DNA of 64,000 bases from the IMG/VR virus record IMGVR_UViG_3300008012_000022, positions 29,369 to 93,368 of that record. The stretch is one strand, 5' to 3'. A program made the position numbers and the translations under genes. The stretch comes from a virus. Positions 8,998 through 63,817 of this stretch are shown piece by piece (within the stretch, counting starts at the first letter, position 1; the number at the start of each line of letters is the position of its first letter). Below the pieces are notes generated by a model. The model was not told the DNA's origin. It saw nothing but the letters and a program-made list of their open reading frames with translations, and ran no database searches.

Positions 8998-9140
8998 TAT
9001 ACAAAAATAAACACTCCGAGAAATATCCCCACTACAAGGCTCTGCACAAGACCTTGCCACCACTCGTCACTAGTATTAAATAATACAAGATAAATAGGTA
9101 CTGTTAACGCTAGTTGCTGCCAATAAGTAACTTCAATCAT
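8997..9140 (-). CDS. small two-TM membrane protein (47 aa)
   Basis: MIEVTYWQQLALTVPIYLVLFNTSDEWWQGLVQSLVVGIFLGVFIFV; ATGA and TAATG overlaps at both ends; absent from the ORF track. Confidence 0.7.
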   Translation of the reverse strand: MIEVTYWQQLALTVPIYLVLFNTSDEWWQGLVQSLVVGIFLGVFIFV

Positions 9141-9448
9141 CGAATAAGTTCCCCCATAATAAATGTGTCAGGTCCACAACGTGTAGTATTGACAGCCTCT
9201 TGAATATCCAGAATAATTTGCTCCAACAAAATACCTTGATCTAACTTTATTTGGACTTCGTTGCGGTCCTTATCTGCTTGCGCCCACCGAACACCTTCGA
9301 CACGGAACACAGCTAGTTCTACTGCTGACTCACAGTTGCCACAACCCATACCTTCAATAGCTATGACTCGTGCATCTGCTGGATATTCTACTTTTTCGGC
9401 GCACCCAATTAGTGCTACTGCCGCTATGATTGATAGTAATAATTTCAT
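9137..9448 (-). CDS. heavy-metal-associated (HMA; CopZ/MerP-like) lipoprotein
   Basis: Signal peptide with lipobox ALIG-C; IEGMGCGNC metal motif; VEGV. Confidence 0.8.
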   Translation of the reverse strand: MKLLLSIIAAVALIGCAEKVEYPADARVIAIEGMGCGNCESAVELAVFRVEGVRWAQADKDRNEVQIKLDQGILLEQIILDIQEAVNTTRCGPDTFIMGELIR

Positions 9449-10080
9449 TTTTGATAACAACTCCACACTGCCGCATTAGCTTCCTCAGTGCAGAAATCTT
9501 TTAAGTTTTCATTGAGAACAGTAGCAGAAATCTCTCCATACCAACTCTCATGCCAGTCCCATCGTTTGCCTAAATATTCGGCCTCAAATATTTCTTTGTT
9601 TGGTGCGTAGTCGTGAGTCATGATGACATCACCCGTTTTAAGATATGGAGAAAGTAATTGGAACTCAAGGTTTTTGTCACCACCATCACAGAATACTAAC
9701 GATTGACCTTCGTTTTGAATTATTCCTCCAATTCTTTCTATCATATGAAATATGTTACCATGCACCCTCATAACTCTATTGGACAGTTTCGATTTCTCTA
9801 ACGCTTCAATATCGTAAGCATAAATGGGAATATTTCTTGATAAACAATGATCATGAAGTAATGAGGTAAAACCTCCATGACGATAACCCAACTCAAGAAT
9901 TCTCATTGGTGAAGTTTCACGCGACAACTTATTTAGAAACTCAAATATATTATTGTTTTGTTCTGTTCTAACCCCTTTATAGAAAAAAGGATAATAGTCT
10001 TTGTCAGGGAACTCAGGATCAGGAACCACATTGTTCATGTTTATTCCATAGCGCCATCTTTTATATAATTTCTTTATCAT
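9445..10080 (-). CDS. class I SAM-dependent methyltransferase-like (CmcI-like)
   Basis: ILELGYRHGG, VFCDGG, LKTGDVIMTHD. Confidence 0.65.
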   Translation of the reverse strand: MIKKLYKRWRYGINMNNVVPDPEFPDKDYYPFFYKGVRTEQNNNIFEFLNKLSRETSPMRILELGYRHGGFTSLLHDHCLSRNIPIYAYDIEALEKSKLSNRVMRVHGNIFHMIERIGGIIQNEGQSLVFCDGGDKNLEFQLLSPYLKTGDVIMTHDYAPNKEIFEAEYLGKRWDWHESWYGEISATVLNENLKDFCTEEANAAVWSCYQK

Positions 10081-10907: not shown

Positions 10908-11100
10908 TGTAAATAAGGTAAAAAATTCCAGATATTAACACAAGAAAGCTTCCTATAAATATCATTACGGTATAAAAACGATGGAAAAAGGAATAGAGTG
11001 AAGGGGTATAGCGCCCGAAATAATGGTTGGCGATTAGACCTAAGACCGCAAAGCTCCAAAATAACCAACAGTATAGATGTAACTCTATACTATCTTGCAT
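10894..11100 (-). CDS. small membrane protein
   Basis: Two hydrophobic segments; start at MQDSIEL avoids a long overlap with the GT2 gene. Confidence 0.55.
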   Translation of the reverse strand: MQDSIELHLYCWLFWSFAVLGLIANHYFGRYTPSLYSFFHRFYTVMIFIGSFLVLISGIFYLIYNDLF

Positions 11101-12037
11101 AACAAATACATGGGTTATTGTTTTCTGTATACCCCCCACAGTGAGGACAAACCATATAATTTTCCTCAAACTCTTCGAAAGTCATCAAATTCTCATAATT
11201 TAATTTCCAATATTCCCATTCGGGGGTTTCAGTCCCGTCCAATTGTGATGGGTCAATTGTTGCTGGTTTCTTATTCCACACTTCGAATGAATTATCTGCC
11301 CACGCATTAATGATACGACCTTCCTCAGGCCAATTACCACCTAATGCTAGCTGCCATTCAGACTCGTCAAGCGGCGGAAACGAAAACCTTTCAGTAGGTT
11401 TCTTTAAACAATATACCACCTTTGTGTCGGGGTGATGTTTCCAACAACTACCATCTGGATTGCTACGAACAGAATCTCTACCCTTGTCTATGAATAGCGG
11501 CGAACCATTTGGTAGTCTAACTGTATAGAATCTATTCAAATCTTCTGCTTCCAAATAATTTTGGACGCACTCTTCTGTCCACTTCAAGTCATCGAGCGGA
11601 CCCGGCCCTCCAAAATTCTTTGGTACGGTGAGATAGAAATCGCGGCCTATAAATTGTGCCCTTTCACTATACCCTCCGTTACCCTGATTACCTGCTAAGT
11701 CTACGTATGTATAACCTTGATTTTCTATCAGGTCAACAAAGCCTCTAATGTCTGCTTCGTATACTGGATTAGCTAGTTCATGATCTACTTGAATATAGAA
11801 TGCATACTCACTCTGACACTGACTGAATAATTGCACGGTGCCAGCACCACAACCAATATTGATCTGGTTGTTGATTACCTCCACCCTCTCTTCACGAGCA
11901 TACTTGTCAGCGTATCGTTCGCCACCATTGTTGAGAATCACCACCTTGTAATCGAAGTGACAAAGCCTCCTGATGGATGATAGTAGTTCCTCCAGTTCCT
12001 TTGGTCGATTGTAATCGAGTATAAGAATTTCTGTCAT
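11090..12037 (-). CDS. glycosyltransferase family 2 (GT-A)
   Basis: ILILDYNRP...LLSSI, VVILNNG, NIGCGAG. Confidence 0.75.
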   Translation of the reverse strand: MTEILILDYNRPKELEELLSSIRRLCHFDYKVVILNNGGERYADKYAREERVEVINNQINIGCGAGTVQLFSQCQSEYAFYIQVDHELANPVYEADIRGFVDLIENQGYTYVDLAGNQGNGGYSERAQFIGRDFYLTVPKNFGGPGPLDDLKWTEECVQNYLEAEDLNRFYTVRLPNGSPLFIDKGRDSVRSNPDGSCWKHHPDTKVVYCLKKPTERFSFPPLDESEWQLALGGNWPEEGRIINAWADNSFEVWNKKPATIDPSQLDGTETPEWEYWKLNYENLMTFEEFEENYMVCPHCGGYTENNNPCICYAR

Positions 12038-12582
12038 GCTATTATTCTAACCTTTTTAGGGAAGAACTTACATTCATATTCCCTCATATAATTCTCTGGT
12101 TTCGATTGGTGAAAGATAGGCATCGGCATATCATCTTCGAGTTCTTCGATAGGAAAGCGCCGATCATTAAACATACCGCTCATAGCTATACGATGATAAC
12201 CTTCGATAGCTTCCTCTGAACCTGATAGTGTAGCGAAAACTGTCAGTTTAGGTATGTGAATAAGACCTCTATCGTCATCGAACCTCATCACCTTCTCTCC
12301 ACACAGATAGTATGTTCCCCTGTGATTCTCTTCTAGATCGTTATCTATCAATTCTTCATCAGGTATATCGACTTGACGTTTCTCCCACCAACCCCTAATG
12401 TAATCTGCCATGTAGGTCTTGCCAGTTGCAGGGGGCATGATGAATAAATTATAATCATACTTTAAGTAGTCACTCCATATTTGATTCTGACAATTATAGG
12501 TCCACTCAACTTCTGGAAGTGTTGGTAATGCTGCGGCTAGAGGTGCTACAACCGCTGTCTTCAATAAATTTCGTCGCTTCAT
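12034..12582 (-). CDS. twin-arginine-leader protein with terminase-like fragments
   Basis: MKRRNLLKTAVVAPLAAA leader; MPPATGKTY P-loop; YMREYECKF. Confidence 0.6.
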   Translation of the reverse strand: MKRRNLLKTAVVAPLAAALPTLPEVEWTYNCQNQIWSDYLKYDYNLFIMPPATGKTYMADYIRGWWEKRQVDIPDEELIDNDLEENHRGTYYLCGEKVMRFDDDRGLIHIPKLTVFATLSGSEEAIEGYHRIAMSGMFNDRRFPIEELEDDMPMPIFHQSKPENYMREYECKFFPKKVRIIA

Positions 12583-12586
12583 ATCA

Positions 12587-12772
12587 CTAAATTATATTTG
12601 ATACTTTGTCATCTATGATGATTCGACCCTCATGAAGCTCCGCATACCAACCAACCTTCTTTGACCTGTCAACATAAACAAGTTCGTCTTGAATCCTGAC
12701 TTCTATCTCTTCCTCTTGTTTCTTTATAAAAGGAAGTGCACAAAATAATTTTAATAAATTTCGCCGCTTCAT
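12587..12772 (-). CDS. twin-arginine-leader mini-protein carrying the major-capsid C-terminal peptide
   Basis: MKRRNLLK leader; VDRSKKVGWYAE identical to the MCP peptide at 55338..55373. Confidence 0.8.
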   Translation of the reverse strand: MKRRNLLKLFCALPFIKKQEEEIEVRIQDELVYVDRSKKVGWYAELHEGRIIIDDKVSNII

Positions 12773-55280: not shown

Positions 55281-56402
55281 TTAAACCTTAAGACCTGTAA
55301 GTGCTCGATCTTCCAGCACGATTCGTGCTTCGTTCACTTCTGCATACCATCCTACTTTCTTAGAACGATCTACGAATTGGTCATCAGGAACCACGTTAAC
55401 ATCGCTTGATGCATCTTCATCCTGAACCACAGGACGGATAAGAGCATTAGACTTGTTACGATCAACTCCTAAGAGGATTTCGTCACTTGCCTGAGTGAAT
55501 GTTACTGGTGATCCTTCAAGCTCATTAATTTCGCTAAAGATTTTGTTGTATCGCTGATTCAGCCCCATTTCCAACAGTTCGATGATGTTCACGTCAAAGA
55601 TAGATGGGTATCCAGCTTTGCTCATGATTTCGTTTCTCATGTTGTCTGTGGCAGGAATCGATGATGTTCCCGAAGTTGCTTGACGGGTATTCACTGGCTG
55701 GTAAGCCATTGCGCGAATTTCCTGTGTCATTTCAGGTGACATAATCAGATCCGTGATACCGAAGCGTGCGCCACCTGCTGGTGTGCCTGTACTCCAGTTA
55801 CTCCAAATACGCTTAGAGCGAGTTAGGAGACGGTTGAAGTCGTCGATTGAGAGTTGGTTTGCATTGGTAGCATCGATCACGTGATTCCCCTGCTCAGCAG
55901 TTCCTTGAATCTTCGTGTCAGCTACGACTAGCGCACCGCACCATTGGTTGACACTTGACTTTTCTTGCAGAAGCAAGAATTCTTGTGCCATGCGAGTAAA
56001 GATCGCTGAAATTACATCAAGACGTGCCTGACGTGGATAACGCTTATTAACGCTCCATGCTGAGTTAAGGCTGTAGGTCTTGAATTTCAGTTCGTCATGC
56101 GCGAGATACATCTCGTTACTTGACAGACCACCTGCGACGGTCTGAGAGTGAACACGGATGTATTGCTCATCTGTAATGTCATGAAAGAGGTCCAGTGGGA
56201 TCGATGGGTTATCGTTCTCACTATATGGCATTCTCTTATAGAAATTAGAGAGAGTCGGCGCGTTATTAATAACTTCCGAAATTACAGGTCCAACTAACTC
56301 CGCAATCGCTGCACGCGCTTCATAGGCGATATCGCGATTTTTCGAAGCAATTGCCTTAATCAATGCAATCTGATCTTCTGTTCTTTTAAGTGTGATTTCC
56401 AT
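55281..56402 (-). CDS. major capsid protein (HK97 fold)
   Basis: 373 aa, after protease and decoration genes, followed by a terminator; ITDLIMSPE, VGWYAE. Confidence 0.85.
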   Translation of the reverse strand: MEITLKRTEDQIALIKAIASKNRDIAYEARAAIAELVGPVISEVINNAPTLSNFYKRMPYSENDNPSIPLDLFHDITDEQYIRVHSQTVAGGLSSNEMYLAHDELKFKTYSLNSAWSVNKRYPRQARLDVISAIFTRMAQEFLLLQEKSSVNQWCGALVVADTKIQGTAEQGNHVIDATNANQLSIDDFNRLLTRSKRIWSNWSTGTPAGGARFGITDLIMSPEMTQEIRAMAYQPVNTRQATSGTSSIPATDNMRNEIMSKAGYPSIFDVNIIELLEMGLNQRYNKIFSEINELEGSPVTFTQASDEILLGVDRNKSNALIRPVVQDEDASSDVNVVPDDQFVDRSKKVGWYAEVNEARIVLEDRALTGLKV

Positions 56403-57049: not shown

Positions 57050-58603
57050 TTATTTGTTTTCTTCGAGAGCCAAACCGTTCTGCTGGAATCTCTGAAATAG
57101 TGTTAAACCTTCTGCGTCTTCACCGATGTTGTTAAGAAGTGGAGAAGCTTGAGCGTCTAGCGTAGCTAGTTGCTTTGCCATATCAGGCGAATCTTCTTTG
57201 TCTTCTTTACCTTCATCGTTTTTCGATGCTTTGGTTGCAGTTTTAGTTTCGCCCTCTTTGCTCTTGTCGTCTTTGTTTTCTTCACCTTCACCTTTATTAG
57301 CTTCTGCTTCTGCTTTAGCAGCGGCAATTGCTTCCTTGTTGCGGTGAGCAAAAACAACCTTAACTTTCTCCAAATAAGAGGCGAATGCTTCATCGTCAGC
57401 AGGAAGTCCTTGAACTTCTTTTGCCACGATAGCTTCTTCTGCTTCTTCTAGAGCGAATTGGCTGGCGATTGTTGCCATACGAGTATTCAGTTTATCTGCT
57501 GCATCGCGAACTGAAATATCGTCTTGAAATTTGTTAATAGTATCCTTCGCATCTTTCAGTTGATCTTCAAGCTGCTTAAGTGCTGCTTGAGTGTTCTTCA
57601 TATCTTCCGAGTGTTGGTCAGACTGAGATTTCCAGTCTTTACCTTTTTCCTCAAAAAGAGTATTTAGTTTCTCAAACACTTCCTGCGCAGGACTGTCTGA
57701 GCTACCATCTTTAGAAGCGATAGATGAGATCATGTCGCTGACCTCTTTCTTAAATTTATCGAATTCTTCTTTATCCATAGCTATGTTAGTCTCGTTATCT
57801 GTTACATCTGTTTCTTTGTTTTCGGAAATTTTTTCATCACTTATGCTAGCAAGTGCGTAAATACCCTCTACCGCAGCAGCAGGATTCTCTGTTAATCCTA
57901 ATCCTACAGGTATTTTCTCACCGCGCAAAACGCGCCGAACCTTTTCCCCTTTATGTGTTTTTCCACTACCACCATTAAATTTCAACATTGCAGATAGTGA
58001 TTGGAATTGAGGGTCGTCAGCAGTAACAATTCTAGTGTCTTGAATAAGCTCACCATCACCTACTGCAACGTCGTATGAAGAAAAGGCAACCTCCCATGAT
58101 GCTGCATATGCATTATATGTATCATCATAAGGATCACTAGCTCTTGCTATAGCCTCTGCCAACTCTGGAAAAACAGAGCGGTAGATGAACCCTAACCCCG
58201 AAATATAGAATGAGTCACTTCTATTAATGTAGTCTAAAGGATCGCCAACAGCGAATGCTGGTTCATACTCAGCAAATCCAGCGCGGACTAAGTGACCTAC
58301 GATAATGTTTTTTTGGTGCTCAATATTAATTGGCTTATGCGGGAACTTAGGTAGCATCTTAGCTGCACCCATAGATGGAACCGCATCATCATTATCATTA
58401 AATTTGTTTACAATAGCGATAGACATCAAGATAGGCATGATGTCTATGTTATCCCATGGCGCGAAATTCTCAGGAATGAGAGATGAAGCTTGCGCCTCTT
58501 TTAACATGGAAGCTTTCGAAATATGATACTTATCATATTCTTCTTCTTTAATGGCGGTTATATTTGAACGCCATTCAGTTTTAAATTGATTTTTTTTACT
58601 CAT
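57050..58603 (-). CDS. prohead protease-scaffold fusion
   Basis: KPINIEH (His), ASWEV (Ser), GLGLTENPAA; C-terminal coiled coil. Confidence 0.75.
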   Translation of the reverse strand: MSKKNQFKTEWRSNITAIKEEEYDKYHISKASMLKEAQASSLIPENFAPWDNIDIMPILMSIAIVNKFNDNDDAVPSMGAAKMLPKFPHKPINIEHQKNIIVGHLVRAGFAEYEPAFAVGDPLDYINRSDSFYISGLGFIYRSVFPELAEAIARASDPYDDTYNAYAASWEVAFSSYDVAVGDGELIQDTRIVTADDPQFQSLSAMLKFNGGSGKTHKGEKVRRVLRGEKIPVGLGLTENPAAAVEGIYALASISDEKISENKETDVTDNETNIAMDKEEFDKFKKEVSDMISSIASKDGSSDSPAQEVFEKLNTLFEEKGKDWKSQSDQHSEDMKNTQAALKQLEDQLKDAKDTINKFQDDISVRDAADKLNTRMATIASQFALEEAEEAIVAKEVQGLPADDEAFASYLEKVKVVFAHRNKEAIAAAKAEAEANKGEGEENKDDKSKEGETKTATKASKNDEGKEDKEDSPDMAKQLATLDAQASPLLNNIGEDAEGLTLFQRFQQNGLALEENK

Positions 58604-60848
58604 CTTCGATTACAGGAATTGTGTGATATAATAGAGCGGCGGAATAATCATCTAGTTGATGTGCTTCCGCTATTTCTATAATAATTGGTTGCGTATGCAT
58701 TACCTTCAATCGATTAATATCTTTAACCGTTGATGCGAATGCATCGTCCCATTCTGGAATCTCAAAGCTTTTCACTACTTTCAAGCATAAATCCCCGATC
58801 ATCTTTTCTTGTTCTTCGGAAAGTTCGTCACTAGCTTTCAATTCCTTATACTTTTCTACACTTCTATCTTGAAACTTGCGTATATCAAAGCACAATTCAA
58901 CAAGAGCATCTGATGAATATACCTCTGATGCTTGTCCTACAGGTCTACCACCAGATGGTGCAGAAACAGTTGGTGAGTTAGGTGATTGAGATGTGGGTGT
59001 TCGTCTTCGTGGATAACGTCTACGTCTACCTATTCTATCTACATAGGTTCCTGATCTTCTACCACCACCTCTGTTTTTATCTTGAGGATCACCACCACGA
59101 CCACCACCGTCAGAAGGTCTACCCGTAGGTTCCTTCGGTTCCTTTTTTAAAGGTGCATTTGGATCAGATGGGTCAGGGCGCGGAACTCCTTCACGCTGCA
59201 TTTGCTGCATCTCTAGTTCCATTTGTTCACACAATTTGATAGCATCATTCTCTGCCATCGGATCGAAGAAATTCTGCGATGCTGTTAACGGTGCATATAG
59301 ACCTTCTAACTTCTCTTCACGCAATTCGAGTTGTGCTTCCTTCATAGTATCAACAGCAGGGAATTCTCCTTTGTGGATAGTATCGATACCTTGTTCAGGT
59401 GTTAGAACACCGAGTTCCATCATACGAATGACAAGCTTCTGTAGCTTCTCACTATTAATGACATCTTCTTTTTGAAAGTGAATTTGTGGGATTTTACGAA
59501 ACCCGAATTCTTTACACAAGCGATCAACCTCTGGCTGAAGGAACTCCCTTAAGAATTGTTCCTTTCCTTTCTCCAATCGCTGAAAGAATAGTTTGAGTTT
59601 CAATTCAGTGTCACTATATTTACTCTCCCCTATAAGAATATTACCCAAACCTTCCTGAATATCTTTGTTCAGCACTTCGTATTTGGCCTCACCCATAATA
59701 AGAGTCAAATCAGGAAGAACGAATTCAGCTTGAGTGGTATAGTCCGACACGAGAACACGACCCACAGACTTGTTCTCAAAAATTTGGCGCATGGCAGCAA
59801 GGTTATTGTGGTTAATGCCACCTTTGTCAGGCTCAGTACCCATCGTAACCAGCAGAATAACATTTTCCACTGAGCGTGCGATAGCCTGATCAACCTTTTT
59901 CAATTCTAGTTTCTTGTTAATATCATCTAGAACTGAGAAACCTAATGGAACCGCTAACGGCTCATAGTCTTGCTTTTTATAAAATACCACATGGAAACTT
60001 TTAGGATCAAGTTCAAGCAGAACTTGATTGCCAGTCTGAATAGCAGAATGCTCTTTGAGTTGGTCTTTAACATCTTTATCAAGAGATTCATAAATATATT
60101 TCTCTTCATCTGTTGTCGCGTTGCGTAATCGTTCAACCTCAAAAGGAGTTAGAGCTTTAGCGTATTGAAACTTGCCAAACGATAATTGACCGTTCACTAC
60201 AATATCTGTGGGATTGAGAATGATATATTTGACAGGTACTCGCTTGAGCACCGAATTATCCTTTAACTTGAAGTTCTTAACAGTCTCTTGTTTTAACTGG
60301 CTATCCAGTCGATACATGAAAACGTTGGAACCTCGGTAATACTCACGAAAGTATTGATCTTTCAGATTATCAAGGTTGATTTTCTTGAACCACGCTTTTA
60401 CAAAATTGCGGCTAGAAACAGAACCACCCTCCATGTAAGTATGAGCATCTGAAAATTCCGCTAAAAGATCAAGGGTAGATTTAAAAACAGGAACATTGTA
60501 GTAAGCTTTCTGACAAAGTAAGATTGCTTCTGTTACATTAACCGAATTCCCTGCTACTTGAAACGGCACCAAACCCTCGTTGATATTGTTGAAGCGTTGG
60601 CCTATTGTTTCTTTGGTGACACGGTTTGTCCGTGATGAGGTGCGTGCATTTGGTTCACTTAAACGACCTCCAGAAGCAGTTGAATCAAAGGATATCAAAG
60701 GCTCTCCGCACATTGCGGGTTCAAAGTCTTCCGTAATTTCAGGCGCGACTTTAGCAAACAATGGATCAGAAGATTCCGCCCTACGCTTGCCTAAGTTTTC
60801 CCAATATTCGGTATTACGTTTTTTATATGGACGTTTCTGTTTCGCCAT
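58596..60848 (-). CDS. portal protein
   Basis: First head gene; AYYNVPVFK, REYYRGSNVF, ILNP, KKQDYEPLAVP; start MAKQKR. Confidence 0.75.
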   Translation of the reverse strand: MAKQKRPYKKRNTEYWENLGKRRAESSDPLFAKVAPEITEDFEPAMCGEPLISFDSTASGGRLSEPNARTSSRTNRVTKETIGQRFNNINEGLVPFQVAGNSVNVTEAILLCQKAYYNVPVFKSTLDLLAEFSDAHTYMEGGSVSSRNFVKAWFKKINLDNLKDQYFREYYRGSNVFMYRLDSQLKQETVKNFKLKDNSVLKRVPVKYIILNPTDIVVNGQLSFGKFQYAKALTPFEVERLRNATTDEEKYIYESLDKDVKDQLKEHSAIQTGNQVLLELDPKSFHVVFYKKQDYEPLAVPLGFSVLDDINKKLELKKVDQAIARSVENVILLVTMGTEPDKGGINHNNLAAMRQIFENKSVGRVLVSDYTTQAEFVLPDLTLIMGEAKYEVLNKDIQEGLGNILIGESKYSDTELKLKLFFQRLEKGKEQFLREFLQPEVDRLCKEFGFRKIPQIHFQKEDVINSEKLQKLVIRMMELGVLTPEQGIDTIHKGEFPAVDTMKEAQLELREEKLEGLYAPLTASQNFFDPMAENDAIKLCEQMELEMQQMQREGVPRPDPSDPNAPLKKEPKEPTGRPSDGGGRGGDPQDKNRGGGRRSGTYVDRIGRRRRYPRRRTPTSQSPNSPTVSAPSGGRPVGQASEVYSSDALVELCFDIRKFQDRSVEKYKELKASDELSEEQEKMIGDLCLKVVKSFEIPEWDDAFASTVKDINRLKVMHTQPIIIEIAEAHQLDDYSAALLYHTIPVIEDE

Positions 60849-60917
60849 GTCTTTGCTTCTTACACAGAAAGTTAAGAAATTTCTTGACAATTTTTAACTT
60901 TTGGGCAATAATAACCA

Positions 60918-61402: not shown

Positions 61403-61474
61403 TGTCCCGTAGCTTAAAAGTAAAGCGTCACCCTCATAAGGTGGAAGTTGTAGGTGCAAGACCTACCGGAACAA
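61403..61474 (+). tRNA. tRNA-Met or Ile2 (CAU)
   Basis: TCACC-CTCATAA-GGTGG; D stem GCTT/AAGC; T stem GTAGG/CCTAC. Confidence 0.75.
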
Positions 61475-61484
61475 TTAATTTAAA

Positions 61485-61856
61485 ATGCCCTGTAAAGATA
61501 AAAAATCACAAGCTGAATCGGCTCGAAAACATTACCTAAAAAATAAAAAGGTAATAAAAGCTAAAGCGGCGAATTTTAAATCTGAAACGGCAATACCACG
61601 AAATAAAAAATTTGTTCGCGAATATTTACTTAAACACCCTTGTATAGACTGTGGAGAAAGTGATCCAATCGTGTTAGAATTTGATCATGTTCGTGGAATT
61701 AAAAAAGGAAACATATCTAATATGGTAAATCAAGCATACTCTATTAAAAGAATTAAACAAGAAATTGAGAAATGTGAAGTGAGATGTGCTAATTGTCATA
61801 GAAGAATAACATTTTATCGCAGAATAGAGCAGTCTGGTAGCTCGTCAGTCTCATAA
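61485..61856 (+). CDS. HNH endonuclease
   Basis: CIDCG, LEFDH, EIEKCEVRCANCHR. Confidence 0.9.
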   Translation: MPCKDKKSQAESARKHYLKNKKVIKAKAANFKSETAIPRNKKFVREYLLKHPCIDCGESDPIVLEFDHVRGIKKGNISNMVNQAYSIKRIKQEIEKCEVRCANCHRRITFYRRIEQSGSSSVS

Positions 61857-61892
61857 ACTGAAGGTCACGTGGTTCGAATCCCGTTTCTGCAA
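61818..61892 (+). tRNA. initiator-like tRNA-fMet(CAU)
   Basis: CGCAGAA start with C1:A72 mismatch, GAGCAGTCTGGTAGCTC D arm, CTCATAA loop, GGTTCGAATCC. Confidence 0.8.
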
Positions 61893-61962
61893 CTTTAGAT
61901 AACTTAAGGGCCAAACGTTGATCGTCCGACCATGAGGTTTTCTTTTTGAAAATCAAAGAATT

Positions 61963-62169
61963 GTGGCAAATCCAACAACGCGACTGATAGCAGAGACTAT
62001 CCGTGATAGGGGCAAAACACGTAAAATCCCCTATAATTTTATGACTTCAAAAAAAAGACACAAACGACACATTAGTAAAAGATTGCGCCGATCTTATGAG
62101 AAGTCTTGTGTAACTAAAGATGGCATGGGTGCCTGTAACAGAAATTGGGGCACTGGAAAAGCAAAATGA
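61963..62169 (+). CDS. small basic hypothetical protein
   Basis: 68 aa, K/R-rich, GTG start. Confidence 0.4.
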   Translation: MANPTTRLIAETIRDRGKTRKIPYNFMTSKKRHKRHISKRLRRSYEKSCVTKDGMGACNRNWGTGKAK

Positions 62170-62232
62170 AACAACTACGACGATATTATCGATTTATCTA
62201 ATCGTTCTGTGACAACAGTTACAGAACGTCTC

Positions 62233-62321
62233 TGTATGTTGTCACCCTTTTCTGTCTGTAAAACAGTCGTCGTTAAACGTAGGGATGGTCCGACAAGTGG
62301 TTCGATTCCGCCAACATACAT
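62233..62321 (+). tRNA. tRNA-Tyr(GUA)-like RNA without a canonical D arm
   Basis: Acceptor TGTATGT/ACATACA; CTGT-CTGTAAA-ACAG; GGTTCGATTCC; long variable region. Confidence 0.5.
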
Positions 62322-62324
62322 TAT

Positions 62325-62398
62325 CTCTCTCTGGTGTAAGGTGGTGTGCACATCTGATTGAAGCTCAGAGGGTGCGGGTTCGATTCCTGCGGGAGAGA
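62325..62398 (+). tRNA. tRNA-Phe(GAA)
   Basis: TCTGA-TTGAAGC-TCAGA; GCGGG-TTCGATT-CCTGC. Confidence 0.8.
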
Positions 62399-62409
62399 CT
62401 TAATTTTCA

Positions 62410-62502
62410 GGATGGCGAAATAAGCTGGTGCTTATCAAACTCTTCAAAAGTTTAGGTTCCACGAGAATTGCGGAACAGGTTCAATTCCAACACCATCCAC
62501 CA
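62410..62502 (+). tRNA. tRNA-Sec-like / opal (UCA) tRNA
   Basis: AAACT-CTTCAAA-AGTTT; 6-bp D stem ATAAGC-TGGT-GCTTAT; long variable arm; 8-bp acceptor with one mismatch; encoded CCA. Confidence 0.7.
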
Positions 62503-62504
62503 AT

Positions 62505-62576
62505 GGGACTGTAGTGAAATGGATATCACGATTGACTACGGATCAATAAATGAGGGTTCGACTCCTTCCAGTCCTA
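62505..62576 (+). tRNA. tRNA-Arg(ACG)
   Basis: GGGACTG/CAGTCCT; ATTGA-CTACGGA-TCAAT; GGTTCGACTCC. Confidence 0.85.
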
Positions 62577-62584
62577 CTTTTTTC

Positions 62585-62612
62585 TTGACAGCGCCGAATT
62601 TTCTGTTATATT
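62585..62612 (+). promoter_or_regulatory. sigma70-type promoter
   Basis: TTGACA-N16-TATATT with TGn extension, 6 nt before the ATG. Confidence 0.7.
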
Positions 62613-62618
62613 ACGGCT

Positions 62619-62834
62619 ATGACAGTTTTAATATTCTTCATTAGTCTCGCAGTATTCGTAACTGGATTAATCGGCGCTTTCTCTAATATGGCATTCCTAA
62701 TGACCAGCGACAAAACAATCGAAACAAGTATTCGTCTTCACTTTCTTTTTGGACTTCTTTATGTGTTAGGTGGACTTAGCACCCTTATCTGTGGTATCGT
62801 TTGGTTGGTTCAGACTCTTGCAGAACTCGTATGA
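62619..62834 (+). CDS. two-TM membrane protein
   Basis: Two long hydrophobic helices. Confidence 0.7.
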   Translation: MTVLIFFISLAVFVTGLIGAFSNMAFLMTSDKTIETSIRLHFLFGLLYVLGGLSTLICGIVWLVQTLAELV

Positions 62835-63166
62835 ATGCTGGAAAAGATAATAGAACCCGACTTTTTGAAATCTTAGTTCCCACAGTTCGTAATGATGGTC
62901 GCCCTATTCGAACACGATTCCACAAAGTATGGGATGAAAAAGTAAAAGCTATAACAAGAGGTTTGACTGTAATGCCTGTAGCTCGTGGACAGTGGGTATC
63001 ACCCGAAGATGAAGAGTTTACTGAGCGCATGATTCCCGTTAGGATAATGGCTACTGACGACGAGATGGACAAGATCGTGAATATGAGCGCCAAATATTAT
63101 GAACAATTAGCAATCATGTTTTATGTGATATCAGAAGAGGTTCAAATCAGAGCATTTGATAATTAG
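62831..63166 (+). CDS. hypothetical protein
   Basis: ATGA overlap; GLTV...GQWVSP. Confidence 0.7.
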   Translation: MNAGKDNRTRLFEILVPTVRNDGRPIRTRFHKVWDEKVKAITRGLTVMPVARGQWVSPEDEEFTERMIPVRIMATDDEMDKIVNMSAKYYEQLAIMFYVISEEVQIRAFDN

Positions 63167-63170
63167 TCAC

Positions 63171-63202
63171 AAAAAAAGAGCGGCAAAGTTGCCGCTCTTT
63201 TT
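63171..63202. terminator. bidirectional intrinsic terminator
   Basis: AAAAAAAGAGCGGCAA-AG-TTGCCGCTCTTTTT. Confidence 0.85.
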
Positions 63203-63264
63203 GTTTTCTTTATTACTGTGAAAGTTGTATTAATAAAAAAATCGGCGCTTATGAAAAAAAGTTC

Positions 63265-63292
63265 TTGACATTTATTGTTCCATACGTATAAT
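63265..63292 (+). promoter_or_regulatory. consensus sigma70-type promoter
   Basis: TTGACA-N16-TATAAT upstream of the ncRNA repeats. Confidence 0.8.
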
Positions 63293-63551
63293 GTCTGTGT
63301 AATCAATTCATAGAACAATGAAATCCAATTTTAGAGACAGACAACTCATTAAGATTAGCGGCGGGAAACCCGTTGATAATCGATGGGATGATAATGTCTC
63401 ACCGTTATCATAAGGCTTGATTCGGGTATTGGTGTAATCAACATATTTTTCACGGTCGGAAAAAGCTTTCAAACTCACTGATCAGAGTCACTGAAATACC
63501 CAATCAGCCAAATGGTAACAACTGTACTCACGCGAGTAACAGAACATTTTA

Positions 63552-63817
63552 AGATGCCAACAGCACATTTATTTTTCACCATTACTTAAATTGCCCGTGC
63601 CAGAAAAGCAGGGACAGCATCTAGACATTTTAAAGATACGAACAGCAAACAACTTAAACAGTTAAATTAGCTCATTGGTTGAGCATTAGTCTACGAAACT
63701 AACGAAGCTGGTTCAATTCCAGCATTTAAACAGTAAAAGTATCTTGACCTTTTTCCACGAAAGTGGTAGACACTAACAGCAACAAACTTCGACAGTTGGA
63801 CGGTAGCATGTGTCTAG
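63552..63817 (+). ncRNA. three tandem ACAGCA bracket elements
   Basis: Covarying end stems AGATGC/GCATCT, AGATAC/GTATCT, AGACAC/GTGTCT, each 5' arm followed by nAACAGCA. Confidence 0.6.
63661..63731 (+). tRNA. tRNA-Arg(ACG)-like, nested in bracket element 2
   Basis: GCTC-ATTGGTT-GAGC; TTAGT-CTACGAA-ACTAA; GCTGG-TTCAATT-CCAGC; AU-rich acceptor. Confidence 0.7.

Follow-up and report, generated by a model that had tools for sequence, protein, structure and literature searches.

A terminase-type ATPase domain behind a twin-arginine leader in a rare family of phage proteins

Why would a phage join a twin-arginine leader to a domain of the type that drives the packaging of its DNA? This question is raised by ORF182, an intact gene for 182 amino acids on the minus strand (12034..12582) of a 64,000-nucleotide stretch of viral DNA. 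This stretch, to which we refer as the window, comprises bases 29369-93368 of the 93,368-bp IMG/VR virus record IMGVR_UViG_3300008012_000022, whose completeness is estimated at 67%. Few phage proteins are as conserved as the large terminase subunits (TerL), for which no role other than that of a packaging motor in the cytoplasm is known. We propose, with moderate confidence, that ORF182 is an accessory ATPase domain derived from a TerL of the T4/Terminase_6N type, and that its twin-arginine translocation (Tat) leader would route it to the Tat pathway of the host. The combination of a TerL-like domain with a Tat-type leader is rare and undescribed: neither a terminase-like protein bearing a Tat leader nor a Tat passenger of this kind turned up in a literature search.

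The ORF182 domain is homologous to the terminase ATPase domain

A phmmer search of 1.8 billion representative sequences returned nine matches to ORF182, and a profile search added four. The resulting family is rare and consists of 12 distinct metagenomic proteins of 113-253 amino acids, none of which has been named. Its other members are 23-34% identical to ORF182. Nevertheless, M1, R3, P14, Q32, N45, F47, P50 and K55 are invariant in all 12 members, and T56, R4 and K8 are nearly so. Every member starts with M-N/K-R-R-N-L-L/I-K, and the 10-15 residues that come next are uncharged, with many Ala, Leu, Pro and Gly. Beyond this leader, the family order is L-P-F-Q-x-x-I-W, then N-L-F-I-L-P-R-G-x-G-K-T, and then three strands as read from the sequences, hhhh-D-[D/E/N], K-h-h-h-F-[A/T]-[S/T] and [F/W]-N-h-[K/R]-x-F; full-length members terminate with F-x-R-[E/D]-x-x-C-E-F. 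A search for longer, fused forms of the family found none, scans of metagenome, genome and viral contigs yielded no further family loci, and in IMG/VR the family was found in only two genomes of the collection.

This rarity, the lack of a Pfam family above cut-off and the Walker A motif of ORF182, which is the most degenerate in the family (P-P-A-T-G-K-T, as compared to P-R-G-x-G-K-T in most members), could be taken to mean that ORF182 is a non-functional remnant or a spurious open reading frame (ORF). We consider this extremely improbable, because the gene is intact and tightly packed in an operon, because at least 12 distinct sequences spanning the size range given above carry invariant motifs, and because the identical sequence occurs in other freshwater runs: the contigs of four of them show no differences where they cover the ORF182 stretch.

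The motifs of ORF182 appear in the order MKRRNLLK, TAVVAPLAAALPTLP, CQNQIW, LFIMPPATGKTYMA, KVMRFDDD, KLTVFATL and YMREYECKF, all on the minus strand. The Q motif CQNQIW (residues 31-36; 12475..12492) corresponds to the family consensus PFQxxIW and contains the invariant Q32, and the Walker A motif MPPATGKT (residues 49-56; 12415..12438), with the consensus L-P-R-G-x-G-K-T, contains K55 and T56. The strand KVMRFDDD (residues 97-104; 12271..12294), which lies in a region of low confidence in the AF2 model of ORF182, is Walker B-like and represents the family-wide hhhh-D-[D/E/N]. It is followed by the C-motif-like strand KLTVFATL (residues 112-119; 12226..12249), which aligns to the TerL coupling motif K-h-h-h-L-S-S-A-S. 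Finally, YMREYECKF (residues 165-173; 12064..12090) is the motif of the TerL ATPase-nuclease junction, where the TerLs of this phage group have F-x-R-E-Y-C-A-x-F. The C-terminus lies nine residues beyond this motif, and the domain ends exactly at the junction. While the family carries the motifs of a TerL ATPase domain, ORF182 itself is without the Walker A arginine and the catalytic glutamate.

An earlier note on this DNA had recognised the Q motif, Walker A and junction motif as terminase-like, and it was right to do so, since they are kept throughout the 12-protein family and align to TerL. It also rightly stated that a protein of 182 amino acids cannot be a working terminase; in addition, ORF182 has no nuclease domain. 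Its view that the gene carries terminase fragments, however, has to be revised: ORF182 represents a whole compact ATPase domain instead.

This domain is homologous to the ATPase domain of TerL. As references we used eight T4-type TerLs of this phage group, related phages' TerLs standing in for the cognate one in the alignments. In hhalign, the family matched these TerLs at the Q motif and Walker A (probability 88.6%, P 2.6e-6). When the alignment was split, the N-terminal part aligned to TerL residues 51-87 (P 2.9e-7), and the C-terminal part alone to residues 233-314, which start at the coupling motif and reach the junction (P 0.016; reversed control, 0.34). When the alignment threshold was relaxed, the family was collinear with TerL residues 33-316. 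Furthermore, we took 1.08 Mb of related phage DNA, which yielded 5475 ORF segments, 80 of them TerLs, and searched these segments with an HMM of the C-terminal half. Among the top 25 domain hits other than self, 20 were TerLs, hit at the corresponding places near the ATPase-nuclease junction, though these 20 are related to each other, many closely, and do not count as independent. Pairwise BLAST aligned the last 29 residues of one member, P0010, to TerL residues 288-316 (38% identity, E 5e-5), and the N-terminal part of another, P0003, to residues 55-91 (E 0.001). PHROG 2 (terminase large subunit) was matched by six of the 12 members, and a helicase PHROG was matched once.

Structural comparisons point in the same direction. 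For the ESM Atlas model of the family member P0005 (pTM 0.67), all ten nearest rows were terminase clusters, eight of them mainly Terminase_6N, with TM scores of 0.64-0.67 over 153-159 residues; for the weaker model of ORF182, five of nine rows were Terminase_6N. With the AF2 model, VIA-align placed the ATPase domain of T4 gp17 at Z 6.9, tied with PhoH2 and Hef, with the P74-26 and HK97 terminases lower; these Z values are middling (5-7) and spread across TerL, PhoH and helicases. Foldseek gave no match at E <= 0.001 in PDB or BFVD. On ORF182 alone, Pfam, PHROGs and NCBIfam returned nothing except a sub-threshold match to Pfam TAT_signal, and Terminase_6N (PF03237) matched none of the 12 members at E up to 10.

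In view of these mixed P-loop matches, an origin from the first RecA-like domain of an SF2 helicase (ResIII/DEAD) has to be weighed. Pfam ResIII matches three of the 12 members (best E 4.9e-4), the best PDB sequence matches are to XPB and MDA5 at the Q motif and motif I, though weak (E 0.12-0.4), and there are weak PADLOC matches to Cas3d and HamB. However, in the complete phage genome that harbors P0005, the sole ResIII match is the TerL, such that the ResIII signal does not separate the two origins. The C-terminal block of 28 residues matches TerL specifically, the arginine typical of the TerL Walker A is found in most members, and the structural neighbours of P0005 are terminase clusters without exception. 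Moreover, a helicase of this type would have two RecA domains with motifs I-VI, whereas the family has a single domain of about 130 residues after the P-loop. We therefore regard a helicase origin as very improbable.

The genome in question (G001) is complete, measures 179 kb and has direct terminal repeats, and it shows how the family relates to the packaging motor. Besides P0005, it encodes a normal TerL of 624 amino acids that passes Terminase_6N and is located at 142-143 kb. Some 87 kb separate it from P0005, which lies at 55 kb; this TerL is also the only other match of the family profile in the genome. The coexistence of a family member and a whole TerL argues that the former is an accessory paralogue and not the terminase, and a split TerL, which we had considered, was dropped for the same reason. 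The earlier idea that ORF182 is a piece of the phage's own TerL likewise does not hold, since it belongs to an old family that evolves on its own, whose other members are 23-34% identical to it and in which the nucleotide-binding residues are kept. A further ORF in related phage DNA (L002:17420-17668, plus strand, 83 amino acids), located 7 kb from the family member of G001, matched the C-terminal half of the family weakly (14.4 bits) and in permuted order, which is probably due to chance.

As the earlier note had stated, the real terL of the window phage lies outside the window: neither PF03237 nor the TerL profile found a match in the 93-kb record. In relatives of the phage, whose portal proteins are 35-58% identical to its own, TerL is encoded upstream of the portal and mostly directly adjacent to it. 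Upstream of the portal in the window, there is an ORF resembling an HNH endonuclease (61485-61856, plus strand) as well as five tRNA genes (61403-63731, plus strand; two Met, one Phe, two Arg), and the end of the contig is reached before any TerL. The cognate TerL thus presumably resides in the missing third of the genome. Three related phages have unusually long TerLs of 1025-1042 amino acids (L065:824-3949, L030:4877-7951, L033:4602-7703), in which some 400 residues are inserted right after the Walker A region (profile position ~77); this insertion may be an intein.

The leader of ORF182 and its family

The leader of ORF182 (residues 1-23; 12514..12582, minus strand) consists of the n-region MKRRNLLK and an h-region of 15 uncharged residues rich in Ala, Leu and Pro, after which E24 follows. 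It contains the twin-arginine motif as K-R-R-N-L-L-K, for which the family form is N-R-R-N-L-[IL]-K. Across the family, the h-regions have a mean hydropathy of 0.95-1.98 and are followed by mostly acidic residues, and several members have V-Q-A, A-V-A or V-D-A sites. The leader is kept at the protein level with differing codons, AGA being used in G001 and CGA in the window. When the leader part of the family profile was compared to PDB, it matched the signal-peptide chain of CueO (E 0.81). Two further readings of the leader were dropped, that of a lipoprotein signal because it has no cysteine, and that of a membrane anchor because the h-region is too short.

Such N-termini are rare in this phage group. 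Among 2041 ORFs in the 1.08 Mb of related phage DNA, only three are Tat-like, and two of these belong to family members. The third is found in L044 on the plus strand, in an ORF of 419 amino acids (…TSRRAFLGSLGLSFALP…) whose body is unrelated to ORF182.

The earlier note had observed that ORF182 and its neighbour, ORF61, have the same leader. Indeed, the corresponding 23-nucleotide pattern occurs in the window at exactly two sites, 12560-12582 and 12750-12772, both on the minus strand and both at the starts of these two genes, where shuffled sequences would lead one to expect none. The notion of a modular leader cassette, on the other hand, was not borne out, because a scan of the whole 93-kb record found no other ORFs with an M-x-RR leader besides ORF182 and ORF61, and because in G001 the leader is present on P0005 only.

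The capsid-fragment gene and the surrounding operon

ORF61 (12587..12772, minus strand) is located four bases upstream of ORF182 and encodes 61 amino acids, comprising the n-region MKRRNLLK, a hydrophobic stretch of eight residues and a capsid-like C-terminal part. Its residues 14-56 resemble residues 324-366 of a putative capsid protein of 373 amino acids that is encoded in the same window (55281..56402, minus strand; 42% identity, E 1e-10), and the claim of a capsid copy in the neighbouring gene is thus upheld. The eight leader codons of ORF61 and ORF182 show three differences, all of them synonymous, and the similarity ends after codon 8. By its composition, ORF61 is a local chimera between the start of ORF182 and a diverged capsid C-terminus, of which the last 43 residues were copied.

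The presence of this gene has a bearing on the decoy cassette that the earlier note had proposed. According to this proposal, ORF182 would mimic TerL and ORF61 the capsid protein, and the two, under one leader, would bind or mislead host sensors (such as Avs-type or capsid-sensing systems). In a further variant, they might drag these sensors to the Tat translocon. It is true that the adjacent genes join the same leader to parts of two virion-assembly proteins, the TerL ATPase fold and the capsid C-terminus. Host defences detect few phage proteins as often as TerL and the capsid protein. Since it is the fold of TerL, and not its sequence, to which Avs sensors respond, sequence divergence alone is compatible with mimicry. 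However, a Tat leader directs a protein away from the cytoplasm, which is the site of the known Avs sensors, and a sensor ligand is more likely to trigger immunity than to block it. Furthermore, the family member in G001 has no capsid-fragment partner. The nucleotide-binding residues are kept as in an enzyme or ligand binder, and the invariance of Q32 and K55, together with the near-invariance of T56, suggests that selection has acted on the binding of a ligand and not on an epitope. A literature search for terminase decoys found no published example, and PADLOC gave only generic helicase-type P-loop matches. A decoy function is therefore improbable in our view, though the leader and the capsid-fragment gene alongside keep a counter-defence reading open, which would be of wide interest and would amount to a phage strategy not described so far.

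On its other side, ORF182 is followed by a gene for a family-2 glycosyltransferase with a zinc ribbon (11090..12037, minus strand), whose ATG overlaps the stop codon of ORF182 (ATGA). This overlap indicates that both belong to one operon, and they are probably translationally coupled. The operon is tightly packed on the minus strand and further includes genes for a ribonucleotide reductase, two methyltransferase-like genes, a small lipoprotein gene and a GDP-mannose dehydratase-like gene; a scan of it found neither a terminator nor an outstanding promoter that would interrupt it. ORF182 is thus embedded among glycosyltransferase and ribonucleotide reductase genes, at a distance of 46 kb from the portal. 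In the same operon, an ORF of 109 amino acids (9137-9466, minus strand) has a lipoprotein-type signal (…ALIGC) and the heavy-metal-associated motif GMGCGNC, and its product would be an exported metal-binding lipoprotein.

DNA of the record is present in about 20 freshwater metagenome runs, among which no RNA run was found; two of the runs contain longer contigs of this phage, of about 117 kb. Its portal-like protein (58596..60890, minus strand) has at least 599 relatives in IMG/VR, from which we conclude that the phage belongs to a very widespread uncultured group. With respect to the host, Shine-Dalgarno cores precede eight of the 65 long ORFs of the record (G000, 93,368 bp; G+C 39.6%), as compared to 6% in random 17-mers. 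This scarcity is a weak hint at a host that makes little use of such sequences, such as Bacteroidota.

Possible action at the envelope and comparison with known systems

How might an accessory TerL domain with such a leader work? In the scheme that we favour, the first ~50 residues of a TerL would have been replaced by a twin-arginine signal peptide. The domain would fold and load its nucleotide in the cytoplasm, for which the retention of Q32, K55 and T56 speaks, whereupon the host TatABC would recognise the RR leader, and the folded protein would reach the periplasm or stay at the inner membrane. A ligand that is confined to the cytoplasm would explain why Tat is used rather than Sec. Because ORF182 has neither the Walker A arginine nor the catalytic glutamate (PPATGKT, FDDD), it probably hydrolyses poorly while still binding nucleotide, though this is speculative. 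Equally speculative is an action at the level of the envelope, for instance in superinfection exclusion or in host-surface remodelling, with which the exported lipoprotein and the sugar-modifying genes in the same operon would be in keeping.

A number of observations weigh against this scheme. Of the Tat prediction, the twin-arginine motif is present, but the match to Pfam TAT_signal (PF10518) reaches 17.7 bits (E 0.0034) and thereby stays below the cut-off of 22.7. This model matches four of the 12 members at E up to 10, all under the cut-off, and NCBIfam has no Tat match on ORF182. A clean A-x-A cleavage site can be read from the sequences of only about half of the members. The AF2 prediction was unusable from the single sequence (pLDDT 30) and middling from the 12-sequence alignment (mean pLDDT 58). 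The periplasm offers no ATP supply to a P-loop domain. The mature domain of ORF182 is acidic (pI 4.8, net charge -11), which makes simple non-specific DNA binding, or binding like that of the periplasmic effector HxsA, unlikely. No genes next to the family member are common to the two contexts available for comparison, the window phage and G001, and genomic context thus gives no clue to function. Lastly, with eight residues the hydrophobic stretch of ORF61 falls short of the length that a signal peptide requires, yet all codon changes in its n-region are synonymous, which hints that the n-region may serve another purpose.

This last point, with three synonymous and no non-synonymous changes in eight codons, also favours an alternative in which the TerL paralogue is cytoplasmic or membrane-tethered. 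The RR leader would then be a tether, an assembly or capsid-targeting peptide or an interaction tag, and the mini-ATPase might, for example, regulate packaging motors or enter them as a dominant-negative subunit; these motors could belong to competing phages or satellites. The invariant nucleotide-binding residues would suit a compartment that contains ATP, and the fact that both leader genes hold pieces of virion-assembly proteins recalls the leader of the T4 internal proteins. However, the leader is built throughout like a signal peptide, with RR-x-L-L-K, an uncharged Pro/Ala/Leu stretch whose composition is kept while its sequence varies, and acidic residues thereafter, and a stretch of 10-15 residues is too short for a stable span as a tether. 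The domain of ORF182 also lacks both parts through which studied terminases make contact with the small terminase and the portal, namely the N-terminus and the nuclease domain, which speaks against a role in the packaging motor. We consider this alternative possible but unlikely.

The family, in which the ATPase half of TerL has been cut out, shrunk and fused to a Tat-type leader, would represent a clear case of a core virion-assembly enzyme that is reused as an accessory protein, probably at the envelope. If export is true, it would also provide an unusual Tat passenger, namely a P-loop domain that possibly carries its nucleotide across the membrane.

How does ORF182 compare to known systems? 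With TerL, as represented by T4 gp17 and Terminase_6N, the family shares the ASCE P-loop fold as well as the Q motif, Walker A, the Walker B aspartate, the coupling strand and F-x-R-E-x-x-A/C-x-F in the same order, and most of its members retain the TerL-type arginine in Walker A. It differs in that the domain is about half the size of the TerL ATPase domain and has no nuclease domain, that the twin-arginine leader takes the place of the TerL N-terminus, and that the gene is found among accessory genes and not beside the portal.

The leader, in turn, resembles bacterial Tat signals such as those of CueO and TorA in RR-x-L-L-K and in an h-region whose 10-15 residues are moderately hydrophobic and include Pro, Gly and Ala; A-x-A-like sites are seen in only about half of the members. 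However, Lys or Asn precedes the RR where Ser or Thr is usual, and Leu is found where Phe is usual. The passenger differs as well, being a phage-encoded P-loop ATPase domain.

A second comparison for the leader is offered by phage T4, whose internal proteins IPI-III have a common capsid-targeting leader, a hydrophilic sequence that the prohead protease cleaves. Here as there, neighbouring accessory genes carry one short N-terminal leader on unrelated bodies, whereas the leader described here resembles a membrane-translocation signal and is confined to two genes.

A precedent for an exported protein that acts on infection in the periplasm is HxsA, a basic DNA-binding effector that blocks the entry of phage DNA (PMC13128918). 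HxsA is encoded by the host and is unrelated in sequence, whereas ORF182 is acidic and TerL-like.

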